64,000 nucleotides of DNA, taken from assembly GCA_963737065.1 (NCBI GenBank), contig CAVTRC010000001.1:2016001-2080000 (forward strand). The letters run 5' to 3'. A model generated the notes under the pieces. That model searched no databases and was not told the origin of the DNA. It saw only the letters and a list, made by a program, of their open reading frames with translations. This stretch comes from Candidatus Eremiobacteria bacterium (GTDB taxonomy: Bacteria; Vulcanimicrobiota; Vulcanimicrobiia; Vulcanimicrobiales; Vulcanimicrobiaceae). This document shows, one piece after another, positions 4,878 to 54,357 of this stretch; positions within the stretch are counted from its first letter, which is position 1, and the number at the start of each line of letters is the position of its first letter. Both the position numbers and the translations under genes were made by a program.

Positions 4878-6320
4878 ATGATGATGAAGCACCCATTCAT
4901 TGCGGCTGCGCTTTTGTGCACGGTACTGTTCGCCGGATGCGGCGGCGGGTCGTCAGGCGGGAGCACTCTGCCGAACGCCACGATCCCTCCGCGGGATATC
5001 AACGTCCAAGCAATTTGTCCGGAGCCGACTCCATCAACGCCGACCGACGATTGGGTGACGCTGGGTCATGACCCGCTCAAGTCCGGATGCCAGCCGCAAT
5101 ACATGGGATTGAGCACGTCGAACGTTTCAAAGTTGAAGCTTCACTGGAAGTATTCCACCGCCGATCAAATCATCGGCGGCCCGGTGGTCGCGAACGGATC
5201 TCTGTATGTCGCGACGCTCAATAGAGGGACCGTTTTTGCGCTGCAGGCGTTGACCGGCAAGTTTCTGTGGTCGACGCAACTTGGTGGTCCCGGCGTCGAA
5301 GTACGAATGATTCCGGCATACGATCATGGGATGCTTTTCGTCGGAACACACAATTTTGTATACGATACGTATGACGACGATTACGATCCGACCGCCTCGA
5401 ACTTGTACGCACTCAACGCCGCGACCGGCAAAATTCTCTGGTATGCGGGAGTTCCGGGGCCGATTCGCTCCACACCCGCCGTAGTGAACGGCAAAGTATT
5501 CGTCGGCGTCGCAGGCGGCGATACGCCGACGTGTACGCAAGGCGGCGTGCGTGAGTTCGACGAGAAAACCGGAGCGCCCGGATGGGTCTTCAATGTCGAT
5601 CCGGTCGCCCACGATGGCGGGTCCGTTTGGTCTCCGATTTCCTTCGATGGTACGCATCTGGTCTTCGGAACCGGGAACACGTGCATGAATTCGGTGCTCA
5701 CCGCGAATGGTGTGGTCGCGCTCGATCCCGCGTCCGGTCAGATCATTTGGCAGTACAACACCTACAACCCGACGGAAGACTACGATGTGGGTAGCGGCCC
5801 AACGATCCTTCACGGTGAAGCGATTGCGCTCAGTAAGAGTGGTACATTGGTGTACCTGGACCAAACTTCCGGCGGCCTAACGGCATCGCAGAAATTCGGC
5901 ACTTACGCGGCGGGCGCCGGCTATTCCACGGCTGCGACCGATGGTCGATATATATTCGTGCGCGTTGGGAACTATGGCGCGGCGGCGAGCGGCACCTCAT
6001 CGCAGCAGCGCGCGCGCCCGTTCTTCGGACGAGTGACGTCCGCAGGATCATCGGGCGGCGGAGCGTTGGTTGCGCTCGACCTCGCGGGCCGAATCGTATG
6101 GACGCATCCGACGCAAACGATCACGTCCAATTCCGTTGCCATCAATGCGGGCGTCGTCTACGCCAACTTAGATAACGCGCTCGTCGCGCTCGATGCGTCT
6201 AACGGGCAGACGTTGTGGTCGTACTCTTTGTCGGGGGCTGCGACGGCATCTCCGGCGGTCGTGCCGAGCGGGATTTATACGGCCGACCAAAGTGGAACGA
6301 TTTATGCGTTTGGACTTTGA
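4878..6320 (+). CDS. PQQ-like/BamB-like beta-propeller lipoprotein
   Basis: Lipobox LFAGC; repeated YALxAxTGxxLW blade motifs. Confidence 0.85.
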   Translation: MMMKHPFIAAALLCTVLFAGCGGGSSGGSTLPNATIPPRDINVQAICPEPTPSTPTDDWVTLGHDPLKSGCQPQYMGLSTSNVSKLKLHWKYSTADQIIGGPVVANGSLYVATLNRGTVFALQALTGKFLWSTQLGGPGVEVRMIPAYDHGMLFVGTHNFVYDTYDDDYDPTASNLYALNAATGKILWYAGVPGPIRSTPAVVNGKVFVGVAGGDTPTCTQGGVREFDEKTGAPGWVFNVDPVAHDGGSVWSPISFDGTHLVFGTGNTCMNSVLTANGVVALDPASGQIIWQYNTYNPTEDYDVGSGPTILHGEAIALSKSGTLVYLDQTSGGLTASQKFGTYAAGAGYSTAATDGRYIFVRVGNYGAAASGTSSQQRARPFFGRVTSAGSSGGGALVALDLAGRIVWTHPTQTITSNSVAINAGVVYANLDNALVALDASNGQTLWSYSLSGAATASPAVVPSGIYTADQSGTIYAFGL

Positions 6321-7315
6321 TGGTAGACGCTTGTAAAAACTCGTTCTGCCGCGTCGACAACATTTGCGTCACCGGTATAGAGTCCGGAATAATACAAGCC
6401 TAAGATCACTGAGGTGTAGTCGATTGCATATGGTTGTCCGTTGACCATGTGCGTTCCGCCGGTTCGTGTGTTTTGCGACTCGTCCACTCTGCCACTTCGT
6501 CCAATCGCGGCGACCTCGCGATTCGTTGCGGCGGTAAGAGCGGTCCGCACGTTAGCGGCCGGTTGCAGCAGCGCGAAGTATGTGAGATGCAGGACCGATA
6601 CGCCCTGGTAACTCGAGTCGAATCCGTTCTCTTCCAGCAGCGTGCCATCTTCGCGTTGCTTCGCTAAGGCTTGCCGTATAAAATCATTTGCCGGATGCAT
6701 CAATGATGGATCGTGAAGAACGGCTGAAGCGTACGCAAAGGCGCATGCGTCGACAATGAGGCGGTTCACGGCAGGAGCGTCGAACTTCGCCAATCGCGCA
6801 AGACGATCTTGGTTGTTCAACCACGCCACGTTCCGGCGAATCGAAGGAACGACCGAACGAATGCGCTGCGCGTATTGCGATGCGAGCGGGCTTTGTTCCA
6901 GAACGACGACTGCGTGAGTGACGGCTTCGATCCAGAATGCCATCTCCGCCTCGTTCATCGTTCGGCCCGGCGCAGTATCGAAGCTTCCGTCACTTTGCAG
7001 ATGAGACAATGAAAGGTCGATCGCTTTCCAGCCGTTGTCGACCTTTGCACGGTCGCTTTCTGCGGCACCAACCCAAATAAGCGGGATCGCGACCCGCTGA
7101 TACACGATGTCGGTCCAGTGGCCGCGATTGAGTTGCATCGCGCCCTCACTGTCCGGCATAGCATTCGCGGTGAGTCGATCGAGCACGGACGCGGGAATTT
7201 TCCTCAGCAGCTGATACTCGTTCGGCGGATCGCCGGGCGGGTTCGCGCTCGCGGAGAACGGTGTCGAACTCGCAACAGTCGCAACGAAAGTGAGCAGAAA
7301 CAACAACAAACGCAT
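6302..7315 (-). CDS. Secreted hypothetical protein, probably alpha/alpha-toroid fold
   Basis: Signal peptide; QxxDGS/T repeats (LQSDGSF, KQREDGTL); GFDSSYQGV. Confidence 0.65.
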   Translation of the reverse strand: MRLLLFLLTFVATVASSTPFSASANPPGDPPNEYQLLRKIPASVLDRLTANAMPDSEGAMQLNRGHWTDIVYQRVAIPLIWVGAAESDRAKVDNGWKAIDLSLSHLQSDGSFDTAPGRTMNEAEMAFWIEAVTHAVVVLEQSPLASQYAQRIRSVVPSIRRNVAWLNNQDRLARLAKFDAPAVNRLIVDACAFAYASAVLHDPSLMHPANDFIRQALAKQREDGTLLEENGFDSSYQGVSVLHLTYFALLQPAANVRTALTAATNREVAAIGRSGRVDESQNTRTGGTHMVNGQPYAIDYTSVILGLYYSGLYTGDANVVDAAERVFTSVYHQSPNA

Positions 7316-42601: not shown

Positions 42602-43426
42602 ATGCAAGTCGTTACAGCGGTCCTGCAGGCGCGCGCCTTGTTCGAAGTGATGCCACGTCCGCTTGGTTTCGTCCCCACAATGGGTGCGTTGCATGAAGGT
42701 CATTTGGCGCTGGCGCGGCGCGCGCGCGAAGCATCCGCCGGTGTTGCGGCTTCGATTTTCGTCAATCCGTTGCAGTTCGGCGCAAACGAAGATCTTCAAA
42801 CGTATCCGCGCGATCTCGAGAGCGACCGCGCGAAGTTCGCGGCTGCGGGTGTCGACGTACTGTTTCTTCCGGATCAAGCCTCGATGTATCCGCCTGATTT
42901 TTCGACAAGCGTCGATGTGGGCGAGATCGGCACGCGCTTCGAAGGCGCCGCCCGGCCAACGCATTTTCGCGGGGTGACGACGGTCGTGTCGAAGCTGCTC
43001 AATATCGTTCGTCCAGATACGCTCTACTTAGGACAAAAAGACGCTCAGCAAACTGCCGTGCTACGCCGGATGATTCGCGACCTCGCCATTCCGGCCACCG
43101 TCGTCATCGTGCCGACCGAGCGCGAGATCGACGGGCTCGCGCTCTCGAGCCGTAATCGCTACTTAGCGCCCGAAGAACGGCAAGCCGCACCGTCGCTACA
43201 CCATGCGCTCGAAGCGCTGCGCACGGCGATGCAGAACGGCAAGTCGAAGGCGGATGCTATCGCGGTTGCGCGAACGCGGCTCGATCCGCTCGCACGGGTC
43301 GACTATCTCGACGTCGTCGACGCGAATACGTTTGCGCCGATCGACGTGCTTGCACCGCCCGCATTCGTGATCGGAGCCGCGCGATTCGGCTCCACGCGGC
43401 TGCTGGACAATCTATGGATCGAATAG
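42602..43426 (+). CDS. panC: Pantoate-beta-alanine ligase
   Basis: PTMGALHEGH, FVNPLQF, GQKDAQQ, LSSRN. Confidence 0.96.
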   Translation: MQVVTAVLQARALFEVMPRPLGFVPTMGALHEGHLALARRAREASAGVAASIFVNPLQFGANEDLQTYPRDLESDRAKFAAAGVDVLFLPDQASMYPPDFSTSVDVGEIGTRFEGAARPTHFRGVTTVVSKLLNIVRPDTLYLGQKDAQQTAVLRRMIRDLAIPATVVIVPTEREIDGLALSSRNRYLAPEERQAAPSLHHALEALRTAMQNGKSKADAIAVARTRLDPLARVDYLDVVDANTFAPIDVLAPPAFVIGAARFGSTRLLDNLWIE

Positions 43427-44619
43427 ATCCGTTGCCCGGCGCCCGCGTCCTGCTCGGCGTCTGCGGCGGAATCGCGGCGTATAAGATTGCTTCGCTGACA
43501 AGCGCACTTGTTCAGCGCGGCGCCATCGTCGACGTCATGATGACGGCGGAAGCCGAGCACTTCATCGGATCGCTCACGTTCTCGTCGCTGACCGCGCGTC
43601 CGGTCTACACTTCGTTGTGGGATGCGCCCGAACACATTCCGCATATCCGTCTCGTGCGCGAAGCGGACGTTGCGGTCGTCGCACCGGCGACCGCCAACGT
43701 CATTGCGAAACTGGCGCACGGCATCGCCGACGATCTGCTGACCACGGCGCTGCTCGCGGCGCGCATTCCGGTACTCGTAGCGCCCGCGATGAACAGCGCT
43801 ATGTACGACGATGCGGCGACGCAGGCGAACCTGGACACGCTGCGCGCGCGCGGATATTGCTTCATCGACCCAGAGCGCGGCTTTCTCGCCGAGCGCGAGC
43901 CGGGTGTCGGACGTCTCGCCTCTGAAGAGCGATTGCTCGATGCGATTACGGACGTGCTGCACCGCAAAAAGTCGCTTGCGGGAAAGCGCGTTGCGATTAC
44001 CGCCGGTCCAACACGCGAAGCGTTCGATCCGATTCGCTTCATCAGCAATGCGTCGACCGGGTCGACCGGCATTGAACTTGCGCGCGAAGCATCGTTGCGC
44101 GGTGCGGACGTGACCTTGCTTCTTGGGCCGACCCTCCTCGAACCGCCGGCCGGTGTGCGCGTTGTCCGTTTCACGTCGGCGCAAGAACTCTACGAAGCGG
44201 CATTGCATGAAGCAACCGGCGCCGATCTAACGATTGCAACGGCAGCCGTTGCCGATTGGCGCCCCGCCGAGCGCGCCGAGTTGAAATTGAAGAAGACCGC
44301 CGACGATCTTACCGCACGGATGGTTCGCAATCCGGACGTCCTCGCGGCGCTCGGCGAGCGAAAAGCGCAGACGTTTCTCGTCGGCTTCGCCGCGGAAACC
44401 GACCTGCACGAAACGCACGCGCGCGAGAAGCTGACGCGAAAACATCTTGATGCCATCGTCGTGAACGACGTGCGCGGCGAACGCGGATTCGGGCGTGTCG
44501 AAAACACGTTGACGCTATTGTGGGGAGAGGACGGGCGCAAGAACCTCGGTACGGCGGCAAAAGCGCAACTCGCCGTGCGCCTCTTCGATGCGATTGAAGA
44601 GTTGATGCGATGTTCTTAG
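43414..44619 (+). CDS. coaBC: Bifunctional PPC decarboxylase/synthetase
   Basis: GGIAAYK, APATAN, PAMN, TAGPTRE, VGFAAET. Confidence 0.96.
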   Translation: MDRIDPLPGARVLLGVCGGIAAYKIASLTSALVQRGAIVDVMMTAEAEHFIGSLTFSSLTARPVYTSLWDAPEHIPHIRLVREADVAVVAPATANVIAKLAHGIADDLLTTALLAARIPVLVAPAMNSAMYDDAATQANLDTLRARGYCFIDPERGFLAEREPGVGRLASEERLLDAITDVLHRKKSLAGKRVAITAGPTREAFDPIRFISNASTGSTGIELAREASLRGADVTLLLGPTLLEPPAGVRVVRFTSAQELYEAALHEATGADLTIATAAVADWRPAERAELKLKKTADDLTARMVRNPDVLAALGERKAQTFLVGFAAETDLHETHAREKLTRKHLDAIVVNDVRGERGFGRVENTLTLLWGEDGRKNLGTAAKAQLAVRLFDAIEELMRCS

Positions 44620-45392
44620 CGATCGACGTCGGCAATACGGAAACGAAGCTCGGCATCTTCGAGGACGCCGCCGACGAGCTCGTGCATCATTGGCGCATCA
44701 ATACCGATGCACGCCGTACGGCGGACGAATACGGGGTGTTCTTCACGCAGCTTTTTGCGACCGCATCGTTGCCCGTGAACGCGATCGATGCGGTTGCGAT
44801 CGCAAGCGTCGTTCCGCGGCTCGACAACACGCTCGCCGGCGTCTGCGAGAAGTTCTTCAACGTGCGCGCGCACTTTCTCGAACCGCAGCGGCAGGACCTG
44901 ATCGAGATCCGCACCGAGCGTCCGGCGGAAGTCGGCGCGGATCTGGTCGCGGCGGCGATCGGCGGCCGGCAGCGCTACGGAGCGCCCTTGATTGTCGTAA
45001 GTTACGGTACGGCGACCGTCTTTACGGCGATTTCGCCGCAAGGCGAGTATCTCGGCGTTGCGATTGCGCCGGGCATCAATGTCTCGATCGACGCATTGGT
45101 CGGGCGAACCGCCAAACTTCCGCAAGTCGCACTCGAAGCGCCGGATCGCGCGATCGGCCGCAACACGATCGAAGCACTCCAAGCGGGATTCATGTACGGG
45201 TTCGTCGGCCAAAGCGAAGCGATCATCACGCGCATGCGGGCCGAGATGCAATACGATGCGCGCGTCGTAGCGACCGGCGGTCTTGCCGACGCCGTAGCGC
45301 GGCACAGTTCGCTCATCGAACGTGTCGATCCGAACTTGAGCCTTATCGGGCTGCAGTTGTTCTATACAAAGCTGCACGACGCCGGCACGTGA
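44610..45392 (+). CDS. coaX: Type III pantothenate kinase
   Basis: IDVGNT, VGAD, GTAT, ATGG. Confidence 0.93.
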   Translation: MFLAIDVGNTETKLGIFEDAADELVHHWRINTDARRTADEYGVFFTQLFATASLPVNAIDAVAIASVVPRLDNTLAGVCEKFFNVRAHFLEPQRQDLIEIRTERPAEVGADLVAAAIGGRQRYGAPLIVVSYGTATVFTAISPQGEYLGVAIAPGINVSIDALVGRTAKLPQVALEAPDRAIGRNTIEALQAGFMYGFVGQSEAIITRMRAEMQYDARVVATGGLADAVARHSSLIERVDPNLSLIGLQLFYTKLHDAGT

Positions 45393-45438
45393 ATCTGCGA
45401 CCCGTCCAAAGACGAGTCATGGTATACTGCGGGTTGCC

Positions 45439-46446
45439 ATGACCCCCGTCGTAGCGCCGCTCGCCGTCGGCGAGCACACCATTTGGCCTCCGCTCATTCT
45501 GGCGCCGATGTCCGGCGTAACGAACCGGACCATGCGTGCGCTCTATAAGCCCTTTGGGCTTGGTCTTACGGTGACCGAGTTCGTTTCGTCCAACGCGCTG
45601 CAGTACGGCAGCAAGCGGACGATGGAGATGATCGACCAGCACGGAATCGAGAAGCCGGTTTCGACGCAGCTCTGGGGCGACGACCCGAAGGTGATGGCGA
45701 GCGCGGCGAAGGTCGTGCGCGAATGCGGCGCGGACATCGTCGACATCAATTTCGGCTGTCCCGCCCCGAAGGTGACGAAGACGAACGGTGGCTCGGCATG
45801 TCTGCGCGACCTCGATCGCTGCGAAGCGATCATGGCGGACGTTGTCGAGGCCGTCGATTGTCCGGTGACGATGAAGATGCGTCTCGGCTGGAGCGAGGAT
45901 AAACTCGTGTACGTCGATGTCGCGAGGCGCGCCGAACGCGTGGGCATCAAAGCGGTGACGCTGCACGCGCGTACCGCGCGGCAGTTCTACAAAGGCACTG
46001 CCGACTGGGATCACATCAAACGGTTGAAAGCCTCCGTCGGCATTCCGGTTATCGGTAACGGCGATCTCGACGATCCGCACGTCGCGATGCAACGCATGCG
46101 CGATACGGGCGTGGATGCAATCATGCTGGGCCGTGCGACGTTGGGTAACCCGTGGTTGATTTCGCAGATTCGCGAATTGATGGAGGGCCGCGAAGCCCAG
46201 CCGGCGCCATCGGATGCGGACCGCTTGCGGTTCTGCATCGTGCACTACAAGCGCATGGTGGACGAATTGGGCGAAGCGCGAGCGGTTCCGCAAATGCGCA
46301 AACACGTCGCATTGTATCTGAAAGGCATTCCGCGCGCCGCGATTCTGCGCGAGCGAATCATGCGCATTCCAACCGCGCATGAGGCTGTCGGCGTCATCGA
46401 AGAGACGATCGAACGTCTGGAACGCGAGTGCTACGTTGCCGCATAA
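45439..46446 (+). CDS. dusB: tRNA-dihydrouridine synthase
   Basis: LAPMSGVT, DINFGCP, LHART, VIGNGD. Confidence 0.93.
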   Translation: MTPVVAPLAVGEHTIWPPLILAPMSGVTNRTMRALYKPFGLGLTVTEFVSSNALQYGSKRTMEMIDQHGIEKPVSTQLWGDDPKVMASAAKVVRECGADIVDINFGCPAPKVTKTNGGSACLRDLDRCEAIMADVVEAVDCPVTMKMRLGWSEDKLVYVDVARRAERVGIKAVTLHARTARQFYKGTADWDHIKRLKASVGIPVIGNGDLDDPHVAMQRMRDTGVDAIMLGRATLGNPWLISQIRELMEGREAQPAPSDADRLRFCIVHYKRMVDELGEARAVPQMRKHVALYLKGIPRAAILRERIMRIPTAHEAVGVIEETIERLERECYVAA

Positions 46447-46478
46447 AAAACGAGGAGACCGCATTGCGACCTCCTCGT
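46445..46478 (-). terminator. Terminator for a minus-strand (tRNA-like) transcript
   Basis: Minus strand reads ACGAGGAGGTCGC-AAT-GCGGTCTCCTCGT then TTTTT. Confidence 0.7.
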
Positions 46479-46517
46479 CTCGTAGCTCAATTGGATTGAG
46501 CACGGCCCCGACTAAGC
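46479..46517 (+). repeat. Inverted copy of the 5' half of the adjacent tRNA-like gene
   Basis: 34/39 identical to the reverse complement of 46605-46643. Confidence 0.9.
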
Positions 46518-46572
46518 ACCCTGACTTTAGCGCGGCCGACCAAACCGCGTCAAGGTGCTTGAGTCCTTGGGT

Positions 46573-46646
46573 CGCGCTCGGCGGGACTCGAACCCGCATC
46601 TCCGGCTTAGTCGGAACCGTGCTTTATCCAATTAAGCTACGAGCGC
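46573..46646 (-). tRNA. tRNA-like gene: Arg-type body, non-canonical anticodon loop CCGACUA (GAC at 34-36), no encoded CCA
   Basis: GCGCTCG TA GCTT AATTGGATA AAGC A CGGTT CCGACTA AGCCG GAGAT GCGGG TTCGAGT CCCGC CGAGCGC G gives a complete 74-nt cloverleaf. Confidence 0.8.
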
Positions 46647-46647
46647 T

Positions 46648-47934
46648 GTGATGCAATCACGCGATGGACAGTCGTTGACAACCGAGACCGCGCACGATCT
46701 TGCCGGCGAAGCGTTCGAGAATTACAAGCAGTACATTAATCCGCCGTTGGCGCGCGTGATGAAGCTCTCAGGCTCGCCGGTTGAAGTCCGCGCTTCGGGC
46801 ACGACGATTTGGGATCAGAACGGTAAGGCGTATCTCGATTTCGCCGGCGGCTACGGCGTCTTCACGCTCGGACACTCGCATCCGCGTGTGATTGCCGCGG
46901 TCCGCGAGCAGATGGAGTCGATGTCGCTTTCGGGCAAGACGATGTTCAACGTTATGCTCGGACGAGCGGCGAAACGTCTCGCGCAACTCGCGCCCGGAGA
47001 TCTCCAGTATTCATTTTGGTGCAATAGCGGAACCGAAGCGGTAGAAGGCGCGATCAAGCTCGCGCGTGCCGCAACGGGACGGATAAAGATCGTTGCAACG
47101 CGCGATGCATATCACGGAAAAACGATCGGCGCCCTGTCGATTAGCGGTCGCGAAGCTTTTCAAACGCCGTTTCGTCCGCTTCTGGCTGACGTGGCGCACG
47201 TCGATTTTGGAGACGCATCCGTGCTCGATGACGCGCTGCGCGATGCGGCCGCATTCATCGTGGAACCCGTGCAAGGCGAAGGCGGCGTAAACGTCCCGCG
47301 CGACGGCTATCTGCGCGCCGTTCGCGATGCGTGCGATCGCACCGGCGCGGTCTTTATCGCCGACGAAGTGCAAACGGGTCTCGGCCGCTGCGGTTACCGG
47401 TTCGGTTGCGATCGCGACGGCGTCGTTCCCGACGTCATGACGCTCGCGAAGGGACTCTCCGGCGGCGTCATTCCGGTCGGGGCGTTCATCGCACGCCCCG
47501 ACCTGTGGAATCGCGCGTACGCGAAGCAGCCGCTCGTACACACGTCGACATTCGGCGGAAGCGAAATCGCATGCGCCGCCGCGCTCGCCGCGATGGACGT
47601 TCTCGAGGACGAGGACCTCATCGCAAACGCGCGCGATCGCGGTGCACAATTGCTCGACGGATGCCGTGCGCTTGCAACGCAATTTCCTCACGTGATTCGT
47701 GAAGCGCGCGGCGTCGGGTTGCTCGTCGGCGTTGAACTCACGAACGAGGGCTACGGCGGCTGGATCATTCCGGAAATGTTGAAAGCCGGCGTGACGGCCG
47801 CGTGGACGCTGAATCAGCAGCGCGTTATTCGCTTGGAGCCGCCGTTGGTGGTCACCGGCGACGAAGTACAGTACGCGCTCGCGGCATTGCGGGCAGGGGT
47901 AACAACCGCCGGTGAGAAGCTAGGGCGCTTGTAA
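46648..47934 (+). CDS. Class III PLP aminotransferase (putrescine/acetylornithine aminotransferase-like)
   Basis: YLDFAGGYG, IADEVQTGLGRCG, LAKGLSGG, HTSTFGG; true start may be TTG 46675. Confidence 0.9.
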   Translation: MMQSRDGQSLTTETAHDLAGEAFENYKQYINPPLARVMKLSGSPVEVRASGTTIWDQNGKAYLDFAGGYGVFTLGHSHPRVIAAVREQMESMSLSGKTMFNVMLGRAAKRLAQLAPGDLQYSFWCNSGTEAVEGAIKLARAATGRIKIVATRDAYHGKTIGALSISGREAFQTPFRPLLADVAHVDFGDASVLDDALRDAAAFIVEPVQGEGGVNVPRDGYLRAVRDACDRTGAVFIADEVQTGLGRCGYRFGCDRDGVVPDVMTLAKGLSGGVIPVGAFIARPDLWNRAYAKQPLVHTSTFGGSEIACAAALAAMDVLEDEDLIANARDRGAQLLDGCRALATQFPHVIREARGVGLLVGVELTNEGYGGWIIPEMLKAGVTAAWTLNQQRVIRLEPPLVVTGDEVQYALAALRAGVTTAGEKLGRL

Positions 47935-52716: not shown

Positions 52717-52862
52717 CGACGAGGTCCCGATCTATGAACCTTCGCGACGTACCGTCTTTTAGGCGCGCCCTAGGGGAGAGCTTCGTGTTCCTCACTTCTG
52801 TCGCGCGTCATGGTTAGGGGGCCCCACGAAGTGGGCGGCGCCGAGTCCGGGGCGGAGCGCCT
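52717..52862 (+). repeat. Extended palindromic element, copy K, overlapping the lysS 5' end
   Basis: Homologous to 49836-49986; partial extra CGACGAGGTTCCCG at 52691. Confidence 0.85.
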
Positions 52863-54357
52863 TACGACCGGGAAAAGTGAAGCTGCGCTTGTAGCGGCCA
52901 GACGCCAAAATCTGGCCGCTTTGCGTTCGCGCGGTTGCGACCCGTTTGAAGCGCGCCGCTTCACCGTCGATACGACCGCGGAGCAGTTGTTGCGCCAGTA
53001 TGAAGTGCTTGACGTCGGTCAGCATGCCGAGTCCGAGAACTGGAACATCGCCGGACGATTGATGTCGATCCGCACCGCCGGCAAAACACTTTTCGCCGAT
53101 CTGCACGACCGCACCGGCCGCCTGCAACTCTACGTTCGCAAAGATGAACTCGGCGACGAGCGGTTCGCGCAGTGGAACGATTTGGACCGCGGCGACATCA
53201 TCGGCGCGACGGGTTTCATGTTTCGTTCGAAAAAGGGCGACTTGACGCTGCACGTTCGTTCGTTCGAAATACTTGCAAAAGGATTGATGCCGCTGCCTGA
53301 TAAGTGGCATGGGCTGCAAGACGTCGAAAAGCGCTATCGGCAGCGGTACGTCGATCTCATCGTCAATTCTGAGGTTCGCGACACGATGATGATGCGCAGC
53401 CGCATCTTCGCCGAGGCGCGCCGCTTCATCGACGGCCATGGTTTCTACGAATGCGAAACGCCCACGCTGCTTCACGTGGCCGGGGGCGCAGCCGCGCGGC
53501 CGTTCCTAACGCACGTCAACGCGCTTTCGGGTGAGGAGATGCAACTTCGCATTGCGACCGAGTTGAATCTCAAGCGATTGATCGTCGGTGGAATGGAGCG
53601 CGTCTACGAGATCGGGCGAATTTTCCGCAACGAGGGCATCGACACGACGCACAATCCTGAGTTTACGATGCTCGAACTGTATGCGGCGTACTGGGACGTT
53701 CACGACATGATGGAGTTCAATGAAGCTTTGATCGCGCATCTCGTGAACGTGGTGAGCGGCGGCGACGATAAGCTGACCGTCGGCGAGCGCACGATCTCAT
53801 TTGCGCGTCCGTTCAAGCGCATCTCGTACCTGGACGGCATCGCGCAACATTCCGGTGGCCGATTCACCCGCGAACGTCTGCTCGATGCGACCGCGGCGGA
53901 CGAAATTCTAAAAGAACTCGAGTTGCCGAAGTCGCCGACGCACGGACACGCCCTCGATAAAATCTTCGAACGGGTGTTGGAGCCGCATTTGATCGAGCCG
54001 ACGTTCGTCATGGACTATCCCGTCATCATTTCGCCGCTTTCGAAGCGGAAGGCCGGTGACGCCGACCTGGTCGATCGCTACGAACTGTTCTGCAACAACA
54101 TGGAGATTTCGAACGCATTCACCGAGCTGAACGATCCGGACGATCAGCGCGCGCGCTTCGAAGCACAAGTCCGCGAACGCGCCCAAGGAGACGAAGAGAT
54201 TCCCCATCCGGATTGGGATTTCGTGCGGGCGCTCGAGTACGGTATGCCGCCGACGGCCGGCATCGGGATCGGCATGGATCGCCTCGTCATGCTCCTGACG
54301 AACAACACCTCGATCCGCGACGTCCTGCTCTTCCCGCTCCAGCGGCAGCACGGATAA
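52810..54357 (+). CDS. lysS: Lysyl-tRNA synthetase (class II)
   Basis: RYRQRYVDL, GGAAARPF, FRNEGID..HNPEF, YGMPPTAGIGIGMDRL. Confidence 0.97.
   Translation: MVRGPHEVGGAESGAERLTTGKSEAALVAARRQNLAALRSRGCDPFEARRFTVDTTAEQLLRQYEVLDVGQHAESENWNIAGRLMSIRTAGKTLFADLHDRTGRLQLYVRKDELGDERFAQWNDLDRGDIIGATGFMFRSKKGDLTLHVRSFEILAKGLMPLPDKWHGLQDVEKRYRQRYVDLIVNSEVRDTMMMRSRIFAEARRFIDGHGFYECETPTLLHVAGGAAARPFLTHVNALSGEEMQLRIATELNLKRLIVGGMERVYEIGRIFRNEGIDTTHNPEFTMLELYAAYWDVHDMMEFNEALIAHLVNVVSGGDDKLTVGERTISFARPFKRISYLDGIAQHSGGRFTRERLLDATAADEILKELELPKSPTHGHALDKIFERVLEPHLIEPTFVMDYPVIISPLSKRKAGDADLVDRYELFCNNMEISNAFTELNDPDDQRARFEAQVRERAQGDEEIPHPDWDFVRALEYGMPPTAGIGIGMDRLVMLLTNNTSIRDVLLFPLQRQHG

Follow-up and report, generated by a model that had tools for sequence, protein, structure and literature searches.

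A cassette of about 240 base pairs (bp) with two RNA genes lies at 46445-46681 on the minus strand of a 64,000-nucleotide (nt) stretch from Candidatus Eremiobacteria bacterium (GenBank assembly GCA_963737065.1, contig CAVTRC010000001.1, positions 2,016,001 to 2,080,000 of the forward strand). This whole stretch is referred to below as the window, and coordinates are given in its own numbering. The first gene encodes a non-canonical RNA with the shape of a transfer RNA (tRNA), and the second a predicted small RNA (sRNA) whose 5' end is complementary to the anticodon loop of the first. Judged from comparison with related genomes, the pair is a real and so far undescribed RNA module and not a sequencing error. 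The reading favoured here, to which about an even chance of being correct is given, is that the two genes form a cassette in which the 5' end of the predicted cognate sRNA masks the anticodon loop of the tRNA-like RNA. The literature searched yielded no account in which a tRNA-like gene is accompanied by a cognate antisense sRNA, which is not proof of its absence.

The tRNA-like gene, 74 nt in length and without an encoded CCA, occupies positions 46573-46646 on the minus strand. It is the only tRNA reported by ARAGORN in the entire 64-kb window, where it is called Val(gac), and it scores 55.3 bits against the Rfam tRNA family RF00005, for which the gathering score is 29. Its cloverleaf combines an acceptor stem of 7 bp with a D-loop containing G18G19 and A20 and a T-loop of sequence TTCGAGT, and the discriminator is G. 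A preliminary description of this DNA, made from its letters, had already pointed out an exact 74-nt cloverleaf here; both programs and direct reading of the sequence recover it, and direct reading also gives the same anticodon loop, C32 C33 G34 A35 C36 U37 A38. Elongator tRNAs possess U33, a purine at position 37 and a 7-nt loop on a 5-bp stem. Arginyl-tRNA synthetase needs C35; valyl-tRNA synthetase prefers A73, and A35 together with C36 are the main valine determinants. The window copy is recognised by tRNA models and lacks the combination of U33 and a purine at 37 on a 5-bp stem that a canonical tRNA-Val(GAC) would show. Its discriminator is G73 and that of its relatives varies, at odds with the valine preference, and A20 is present as in arginine tRNAs, with A instead of C at position 35. 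Searches of phage and plasmid collections matched the tRNA part only, at 77-80% identity: of six phage records, four are annotated tRNA-Arg (77-79%) and two tRNA-Trp, and seven plasmid records matched. In E. coli no match to the cassette was found, its tRNA part included. The conflict of identity seen earlier therefore stands, an arginine-like body (77-80% to tRNA-Arg) being combined with a GAC anticodon and a G discriminator.

Relatives were gathered by searching a genome collection with the protein of the adjacent dihydrouridine synthase gene (dus), which yielded 80 loci (numbered with the prefix L below) with Dus identities of 78-91%, mostly from Eremiobacterota/Vulcanimicrobiota (Baltobacteraceae, Cybelea, Aquilonibacter and others); the survey thus covers dus-linked loci. 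The best Dus match is 91% (L001), and the species of the window is apparently not among the 80. Synteny of dus with an aminotransferase gene is found in all 80 loci. ARAGORN detects 21 minus-strand tRNA-like genes in 19 loci, three of them in tandem in L071, and the window brings the total to 22 copies, of which 19, that of the window included, are called Val(gac). The orientation is identical in all 22. The cassette is located between dus and the aminotransferase gene in 14 loci and in the window, and just 5' of dus in five (L031, L043, L049, L053 and L062). The whole arrangement, with its antisense segment conserved, therefore recurs in 19 of the 80 loci, and it does so with compensatory change, which bears out the earlier opinion that the odd loop is not a read error; a one-off pseudogene is ruled out on the same grounds.

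An alignment of 21 rows was used for family features, comprising the window and 20 copies; L016 was omitted because its module is identical to that of L012, and the third unit of L071 (L071c) is without its 5' half. The anticodon is GAC in 19 rows, AAC in one (L031) and UCG in one (L043), and 20 of 21 retain A35 and C36. U occupies position 37 in 17 rows, G in three and C in one; position 33 is U in 14 and C in seven, among them the window; and in 12 rows the 31:39 pair is missing, which leaves a 4-bp stem and a 9-nt loop. The discriminator is G in 11 rows, C in six and A in four. The odd loop, kept across copies, is a family trait, and the variable discriminator argues against a fixed relationship with one synthetase. 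The tRNA-like RNA is probably not an ordinary decoding elongator, which agrees with the non-decoding role proposed in the preliminary description. Of the two unusual loop bases emphasised there, U37 is shared by most orthologues, and C33 turns out to be the minority form.

The predicted sRNA has a putative promoter of its own, P2, at 46524-46553 on the minus strand, composed of TTGACG (46553-46548), an 18-nt spacer and TAAAGT (46529-46524). P2 is the sole promoter-like site in 46200-47000, where shuffled sequences give a mean of 0.2; it agrees with the consensus at 9 of 12 positions, and its spacer lies within the 17 +/- 1 nt expected of such promoters. The middle of the -10 element differs among copies (TAAAGT, TAGAGT, TACAGT, TAGAAT, TAAGAT, TATACT and others), and none of the 21 rows departs from the T and G of TTGAC or from the T, A and T of TAnnnT. 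Invariance of T, A and T around a varied middle is the signature of a -10 hexamer and not of a helix, and P2 has the features of a sigma70-type promoter as far as they can be read from sequence. The seventh base after the -10 element is alignment column 142 (46517), which is also the first base of complementarity to the tRNA-like RNA. Since the predicted start of transcription and the start of complementarity coincide, the antisense piece would be the 5' seed of a separate sRNA. This sRNA of about 73 nt (46445-46517, minus strand), its 5' end placed by the geometry of P2, would consist of the seed GCUUAGUCGGGGCCGUG (46517-46501), a small hairpin (46501-46485), GCUACGAG and a terminator. Folded alone, it has a mostly open 5' end, the small hairpin, which covaries, and a 15-bp terminator. 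The intrinsic terminator (46445-46478, minus strand) has a stem within 46451-46478, which appears as repeat arms at 46450-46463 and 46465-46478 and in folds as a stem of 13-15 bp, followed by UUUUUU at 46450-46445; the U-tailed terminator described earlier is thus found again by folding, and a simple terminator scan did not flag it (0 found). Overall, the sRNA is a diverged reverse complement of a tRNA 5' half that ends GCUAC and carries a D-arm-derived hairpin. In a search of Rfam 15 at gathering thresholds RF00005 alone passes, with no family for the sRNA or the cassette, and a search by E-value over the sRNA returns mir-485 (E = 1.8) as the best match and mir-648 (E > 1), both at chance level.

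The two genes are connected by an inverted repeat with arms at 46479-46517 and 46605-46643, each 39 nt long, 87 nt apart and 87% complementary (34 of 39). The first arm, on the minus strand, is antisense to positions 4-42 of the tRNA-like RNA. The five mismatched positions comprise three U.G on the minus strand, one A.C and one A.A. Both the stretch and its three G-U pairs had been reported in the preliminary description and were reproduced. A pattern common to both arms has two exact matches in the window, which are those arms, and no further site. The 39-nt match of the window is the longest in the family. In the other copies the D-arm part of the inverted duplication has diverged with insertions and deletions and the anticodon-arm part has stayed complementary, so that of the complementarity to the D and anticodon arms first described, the portion at the anticodon arm belongs to the family and the rest is peculiar to the window genome. 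The target of the seed is the anticodon arm (46605-46622, minus strand; part of the arm 46605-46643), which in the window forms a contiguous pairing block of 17 bp with a duplex energy of -32.0 kcal/mol.

The helix between loop and seed (tRNA-like columns 28-44 with sRNA columns 142-158) is paired in 89.0% of cells, compared with 71.6% in shuffles and 30-43% when partners are slid. In 15 of its 17 pairs both sides change, a level attained in none of 500 shuffles. Change on both sides extends to loop columns unpaired within the tRNA, for example column 34 (CG 7, UG 7, AU 4, UA 2), column 35 (CG 13, AU 4, UA 2) and column 36 (UA 14, CG 6). The MAFFT alignment is off register in L043 (by 2) and L053 (by 1), and both rows count against the helix; with the register corrected, a contiguous block of 10-17 bp, scored over 17 positions, is present in 21 of 21 rows. 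Loops and seeds of different sequence are matched accordingly: GACGAAG pairs with CUUCGUC (L049, L071a), GACUACA/G with UGUAGUC/CGUAGUC (L036, L056), CUAACGAAG with CUUCGUUAG (L031) and CCCUCGCAAGG with CCUUGCGAGGG (L043). Cognate duplexes have energies of -24 to -34 kcal/mol and non-cognate means are -8 to -22 kcal/mol. The cognate sRNA ranks first for 14 of the 21 arms and among the top six for all. In L071 (5970-6784) three tandem units, with tRNA-like genes at 6117-6191, 6368-6442 and 6638-6716 on the minus strand, have diverged loops and seeds, and each sRNA prefers its own partner; the third unit lacks the tRNA-like 5' half. The three orthogonal pairs would represent natural, mutually insulated codes of RNA-RNA recognition. 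Lack of conservation of the antisense segment in relatives would have spoken against its importance; instead, complementarity is conserved and co-varies with the loop throughout the 21 rows, and it appears to be kept by compensatory change, as expected for a cognate base-pairing sRNA.

The structures within the cassette are under similar constraint. The RNA of the 211-nt minus-strand region folds with z = -9.15, showing that the structure is not due to chance. In the cloverleaf, trailer hairpin, small hairpin and terminator together, 92.9% of cells are paired and 27 of 47 pairs change on both sides; none of the 500 shuffles reaches this, slid partners are paired in 36-49%, and RNAalifold recovers the cloverleaf independently. 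The tertiary 19:56 pair is GC in 13 rows, AU in five and GU in two, and its switch from G:C to A:U in five rows indicates that the L-shape is kept. Between the two genes is a trailer hairpin (46510-46565, minus strand) with repeat arms at 46514-46525 and 46549-46560; its outer stem is predicted by RNAalifold, and its helices are paired in 85.7-89.6% of cells. This is the long hairpin of the preliminary description, recovered by repeat search and by folds, and it proves to enclose P2. G.U outnumbers A.C 26:4 in the cloverleaf, 43:7 in the outer stem of the trailer hairpin and 35:4 in the terminator. The strand bias marks the trailer hairpin as a structure of the minus-strand RNA which transcription from upstream must cross, so that, in addition to the sRNA, a read-through product of the upstream motif is probable.

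That motif, P1 (46654-46681, minus strand), consists in the window of TTGTCA (46681-46676), a 16-nt spacer and TGATTG (46659-46654), 7 nt before the first base of the tRNA-like RNA. Its form in the 22-copy alignment is TTG(T/C)CA, exactly 16 nt and (GCG)TGATnG, 7-9 nt before +1. The 16-nt spacer is common to all rows and TTG to 19-20 of 22 copies; within GCGTGATnG, G72, G76 and A77 are found in 22 of 22, G74, T78 and G80 in 21, and C73 and T75 in 19. P1 is promoter-like, and it presumably acts as a promoter. As a sigma54 or extended -10 promoter it was rejected, the conserved bases fitting neither by eye. The cassette may thus be read as two nested units, with P1 giving the tRNA-like RNA and a read-through product to the shared terminator, and P2 giving the sRNA. 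Of the single transcription unit first proposed, the read-through part is probable, and the antisense part has its own predicted promoter. The statement that the tRNA lies beside dusB with almost no room for a promoter was mistaken, since the gene adjoining its 5' end is the aminotransferase gene and the conserved bipartite motif stands 7 nt upstream. In the window P1 overlaps the first aminotransferase codons on the opposite strand. The -35-like box of P1, read on that strand, forms a Shine-Dalgarno-like AAGAGG/AAGGGG before the start of the aminotransferase (or dus) gene in the window (46676-46690), L010, L012, L040 and L073, and the cassette edge seems to serve both strands.

On the favoured reading, a tRNA-like RNA of arginine-tRNA ancestry would keep its L-shape and expose, on an anticodon stem of 4-5 bp, a loop of 7-9 nt with near-invariant G34 A35 C36 U37 A38, a pyrimidine at 33 and a variable discriminator elsewhere in the molecule. 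P2, which sits in the 3' trailer of this RNA, would direct synthesis of the sRNA with its own terminator, whose first 10-17 nt (39 nt in the window genome) would be antisense to the anticodon loop and stem. Pairing may nucleate between the open loop and the unpaired 5' end of the sRNA, which would then invade the short stem; the resulting duplex of about 15 bp would mask the anticodon arm and switch off the reader of GAC, which could be valyl-tRNA synthetase, the ribosome or another partner. In a read-through transcript both RNAs would be present in cis, with the covarying hairpin between them. The masking may be read in three ways, as plain cognate control of the tRNA-like RNA, as a sponge or as a system resembling toxin-antitoxin pairs.

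The order in which the cassette decays is also informative. A hidden Markov model (HMM) of the whole unit finds the same 19 loci to be full, nine with the 3' part only (L017, L019, L024, L029, L046, L061, L069, L079 and L080), three with remnants (L003, L025 and L072) and 49 of the 80 without a match; L011, one of the 49, contains a deletion remnant seen by pairwise alignment only. The tRNA-like gene is absent or degraded at the dus site in 61 of the 80 loci. In the nine sRNA-only loci, P2, seed, small hairpin and terminator are intact and the tRNA-like gene is damaged in nine ways with differing end points. L017 has lost its 5' strand and D-arm, L019 and L029 the D and anticodon arms, L079 the 3' half, L024 and L069 nearly all of the gene, and L046, L061 and L080 have lost the gene and P1 cleanly. 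L071c, with the 5' half lost and the sRNA kept, is a tenth case. No intact tRNA-like gene without the sRNA was seen, the comparison comprising 28 loci with an intact sRNA and the window. The seed core UAGUC is kept in eight of the nine sRNA-only loci. These loci are scattered singletons (nine rows, eight changes) on a quick Dus tree in which many forks are weak, and close relatives differ, L056 having the full cassette, L061 the sRNA only, and L045, L038 and L052 none. The cassette is accordingly of long standing in this family and can be dispensed with; it has been lost several times over, the tRNA-like gene disappearing before the sRNA.

Several points weigh against masking of the anticodon loop by the sRNA. 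The transcription start sites and both RNAs are predictions. The promoter scan did not call P1, which has no match to the sigma70 consensus, and transcription of the tRNA-like RNA from it is presumptive. In the loop-seed helix G.U and A.C stand at 18:11, which is not decisive as a test of strand, so that selection on RNA is not separated from homogenisation of the repeats at the DNA level, for example by gene conversion; the shuffle control (500) ignores relatedness. The 49 loci without an HMM match show that the cassette is dispensable. An intact sRNA without an adjacent anticodon arm is found in seven loci (L019, L024, L029, L046, L061, L069 and L080), where either it has another target or the loci are transient states. 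Finally, the tRNA-like gene may be the sole tRNA-Val(GAC) of these genomes, the survey being one of dus-linked loci.

The order of decay bears most directly on an all-RNA addiction system of the toxin-antitoxin kind, which is considered rather unlikely. According to this explanation, a tRNA mimic of arginine ancestry with a valine-type anticodon in an enlarged loop would harm translation when free, by mis-decoding, frameshifting or blocking the ribosome, and the cognate sRNA would cap the loop as an antidote. Ten losses of the tRNA-like part with the sRNA kept (nine loci and L071c), as against none of the reverse kind, agree with it, and so does the scattering of the sRNA-only loci as singletons, which is expected for a transient state before loss. 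The three tandem units with orthogonal pairing in one genome (L071), a P2 near consensus beside a weak P1 and the patchy distribution among close relatives also fit. However, toxicity is pure inference and the mechanism hypothetical; by the identity rules given above, the A35 and C36 of GAC would be expected to attract valine and be harmless; the deletion bias could have other causes, such as a need of dus for the terminator; and the numbers are small and the tree quick and weakly supported. If this explanation were true, the L071 pairs would be like paralogous toxin-antitoxin copies, and the earlier death of the tRNA-like gene would be the footprint of addiction.

A little less probable again is the view that the sRNA is an effector with other targets in trans and the tRNA-like RNA a stable decoy, or sponge, that titrates it. 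It draws on the near-invariance of GACUA/UAGUC, which implies constraint beyond mutual pairing: UAGUC persists in eight of the nine sRNA-only loci, and G34-A38 is near-invariant while the flanks drift with compensation. With its 5' seed, hairpin and terminator the sRNA also follows the classic plan of sRNAs that act in trans, and a tRNA-precursor spacer is known to act as an sRNA sponge in E. coli. On the other side, no candidate target was found, the arm pattern matching its own two sites alone in the 64-kb window; no clade keeps the sRNA alone for long on the quick tree; and the seeds of L031, L043 and L008 are very different, which is hard to fit to a conserved target in trans.

The alternative-fold switch proposed in the preliminary description is improbable. 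Here one transcript from P1 to the terminator would toggle between the cloverleaf and a long-range duplex, and the promoter motif in the hairpin would be incidental. The minus-strand-specific covariation of the trailer hairpin (43:7), by which transcription crosses it, suits such a transcript, and in the minimum-free-energy fold of the 211-nt RNA (-118.6 kcal/mol) the tRNA 5' half pairs with the antisense stretch. The likely read-through speaks for this explanation, but it leaves the signature of P2 and the survival of the sRNA without P1 unexplained: the invariance of TAnnnT and TTGAC, the varied middle and the fixed 18-nt spacing persist even in L053 and L062, whose hairpin has a different register, the predicted P2 start is exactly the first base of complementarity, and P2, sRNA and terminator survive clean deletion of P1 and the tRNA-like gene (L046, L061, L080).

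An invertible promoter is a very distant candidate. The two copies of the anticodon arm would be recombination sites, and a flip of 46518-46604 would turn P2 towards the aminotransferase gene. Inverted repeats do flank a promoter, their core is perfectly identical as at crossover sites, and a plus-strand gene invariably starts next to the tRNA 5' end. Against this, all 22 copies have one orientation, P2, sRNA and terminator remain where the other arm has been lost, the 15 neighbouring open reading frames (ORFs) scanned (38.9-54.4 kb) yielded no recombinase or integrase family, and the selection seen on T-arm, acceptor stem and 19:56 pair goes unexplained. The idea of a tRNA-derived inverted-repeat element subject to inversion, raised earlier, is not upheld on these grounds.

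Equally slight is the case for a functionless relic, in which a decaying tRNA pseudogene and a fragment would remain from duplication or from integration of a mobile element. The cassette is indeed dispensable and often degraded, with no match in 49 of 80 loci and remnants in L003, L011, L025 and L072, and tRNA fragments are common by-products of element integration according to PMC9897764. However, all helices and the tertiary pair show compensatory change, and the promoter has kept its invariant bases. Integration-derived fragments, as presented in PMC9897764, take the form of direct repeats that bound kilobase-sized, integrase-bearing elements and usually repeat the 3' end region of the tRNA. 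They resemble the cassette in placing a partial second tRNA copy near a full one, but the second copy in the cassette is a 5' half in inverted orientation at a distance of 87 nt, furnished with a promoter and a terminator and conserved across species. The inverted 5'-half repeat, the short distance and the absence of an integrase among the same 15 ORFs do not fit a fragment of this origin.

Least credible of all is an ordinary, if unusual, tRNA-Val(GAC) used in translation beside a complementarity without consequence: the Val(gac) calls in 19 of 22 copies and the A35 and C36 kept in 20 of 21 rows are countered by U37 in 17 of 21, an A discriminator in only four of 21, a 4-bp anticodon stem in 12 of 21, the arginine-like body, the absence or degradation of the gene at the dus site in most relatives, and a loop-seed covariation that remains unexplained.

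The predicted cassette shares features with several known systems. Type I toxin-antitoxin loci with an adjacent antitoxin sRNA, such as tisB/istR-1, zorO/orzO and shoB/ohsC, likewise consist of two adjacent, separately promoted genes with about 15-20 nt of complementarity kept by co-evolution, tandem cognate copies and a patchy distribution. Their target is the mRNA of a toxic peptide, whereas that of the cassette is a tRNA-shaped RNA without a toxin ORF; the two genes of the cassette are on the same strand, and its toxicity is hypothetical. No small toxin ORF was found in the target RNA, the ORFs crossing the tRNA-like gene being long spurious overlaps only. The 3' external transcribed spacer of glyW-cysT-leuZ, which titrates RyhB and RybB in E. 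coli, is similar in that RNA from a tRNA unit pairs with an sRNA seed; in the cassette, in contrast, pairing would occur at the anticodon loop of the tRNA-like body itself, with an sRNA that is encoded within the cassette and co-varies. The tRNA-Other of Bacillus cereus, allo-tRNAs and natural mistranslating tRNAs share a full cloverleaf, a mismatch of body and anticodon and a place outside the standard set, but the cassette loop has U37 and often 9 nt, and we know of none among these tRNAs with a dedicated antisense sRNA. Bacterial Y RNA modules, such as YrlA (Rfam RF02553), also have a tRNA-like domain in a non-coding RNA. Against the YrlA model the window scores 13.8 bits and L008 20.5 bits, with a gathering score of 69, and the cassette cloverleaf is complete, with an anticodon arm; the scan of 15 neighbouring ORFs gave no Ro/Rsr family. 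Base-pair recognition of an anticodon or hairpin loop is known from the pairing of the T-box Specifier with the anticodon and from the loop-loop antisense RNAs of plasmid copy-number control. The T-box pairs 3-4 nt of a real tRNA in cis to the regulated gene, whereas the cassette would pair 10-17 nt with a dedicated tRNA-like partner, and Rfam reports no T-box and no ctRNA above threshold. The cassette appears to be a new form of the known adjacent pairs of antisense sRNA and target genes and of non-canonical tRNA-like RNAs, and would be a member of no named family.

Pairing of the two RNAs in the cell, if it takes place, would provide the first example known to us of a bacterial antisense RNA dedicated to the anticodon loop of an RNA with tRNA shape. 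The partners of bacterial sRNAs would gain a new kind, and there would be a natural example of a tRNA-like molecule switched on and off by masking of its anticodon; should the tRNA-like RNA be harmful alone, the logic would be that of a toxin-antitoxin system made of RNA only. In any case the cassette is a conserved non-coding element of Eremiobacterota, an almost uncultured soil phylum, with no such RNA in Rfam.

The genes flanking the cassette are all on the plus strand. The dus gene (45439-46446; Pfam PF01207, E = 3.3e-87) is convergent with the cassette and lies on its 3' side, where the U-run of the terminator (46450-46445) overlaps the dus stop codon (46444-46446). On the other side a class-III aminotransferase gene (46648-47934; Pfam PF00202, E = 3.4e-97) is divergent from the tRNA-like gene and abuts its 5' end, and the start of its ORF (46648/46651) overlaps the P1 motif. 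Directly 5' of dus, on the same strand, are the coenzyme-A pathway genes panC, coaBC and the type III coaX (42602-46446 including dus), and a gene for an SRPBCC protein is found downstream of the aminotransferase gene. A gene for a class II aminoacyl-tRNA synthetase of the Asp/Lys/Asn type is located at 52810-54357.

Sites with and without the cassette were compared in three pairs (L010/L011, L073/L028 and L056/L045), of which L028 and L045 are clean empty sites. In cassette-free L028 (5985-6000), L045, L006, L022 and others, the dus stop codon overlaps or nearly touches the start of the aminotransferase gene, for example as GTGA, which suggests an ancestral, translationally coupled dus-aminotransferase operon that was split by the oppositely oriented cassette. 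A target-site or terminal-repeat signature of a mobile element was considered and rejected, since the likeness of GCGTGAT to the dus stop in L073 is not general and is absent in the window and in the units 5' of dus.

Other arrangements are encountered at the same junction. In L008 (5985-6215), which is HMM-negative, a divergent analogue at the dus/aminotransferase junction has a tRNA-like domain, a long acceptor-like stem and a T-arm, and gives a local Rfam match to transfer-messenger RNA of 17 bits, below the gathering score of 47. Downstream of it are a promoter-like site, TTGTGG-17-TATCGT, an sRNA-like stretch and a terminator, and the first 18 nt of the stretch are antisense to the upstream element; the architecture is that of the window cassette and the sequence is different. 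In L010 (6010-6780) and also in L004, L011, L014, L015, L032, L048 and L068, dus is separated from the cassette or aminotransferase gene by an extra ORF of about 256 amino acids that matches no Pfam family. Seven contigs (L007, L018, L021, L025, L035, L048 and L069) are labelled Acidiferrales/Acidoferrum (Acidobacteriota), Verrucomicrobiia or Babeliales. Their Dus proteins are 79-82% identical to that of the window, and they share the dus-aminotransferase synteny and some also the cassette; mis-binning or mislabelling of these metagenome-assembled genomes (MAGs) is likely. Identical cassettes are found in L012 and L016 (6673-6959), which belong to two different species-representative MAGs.

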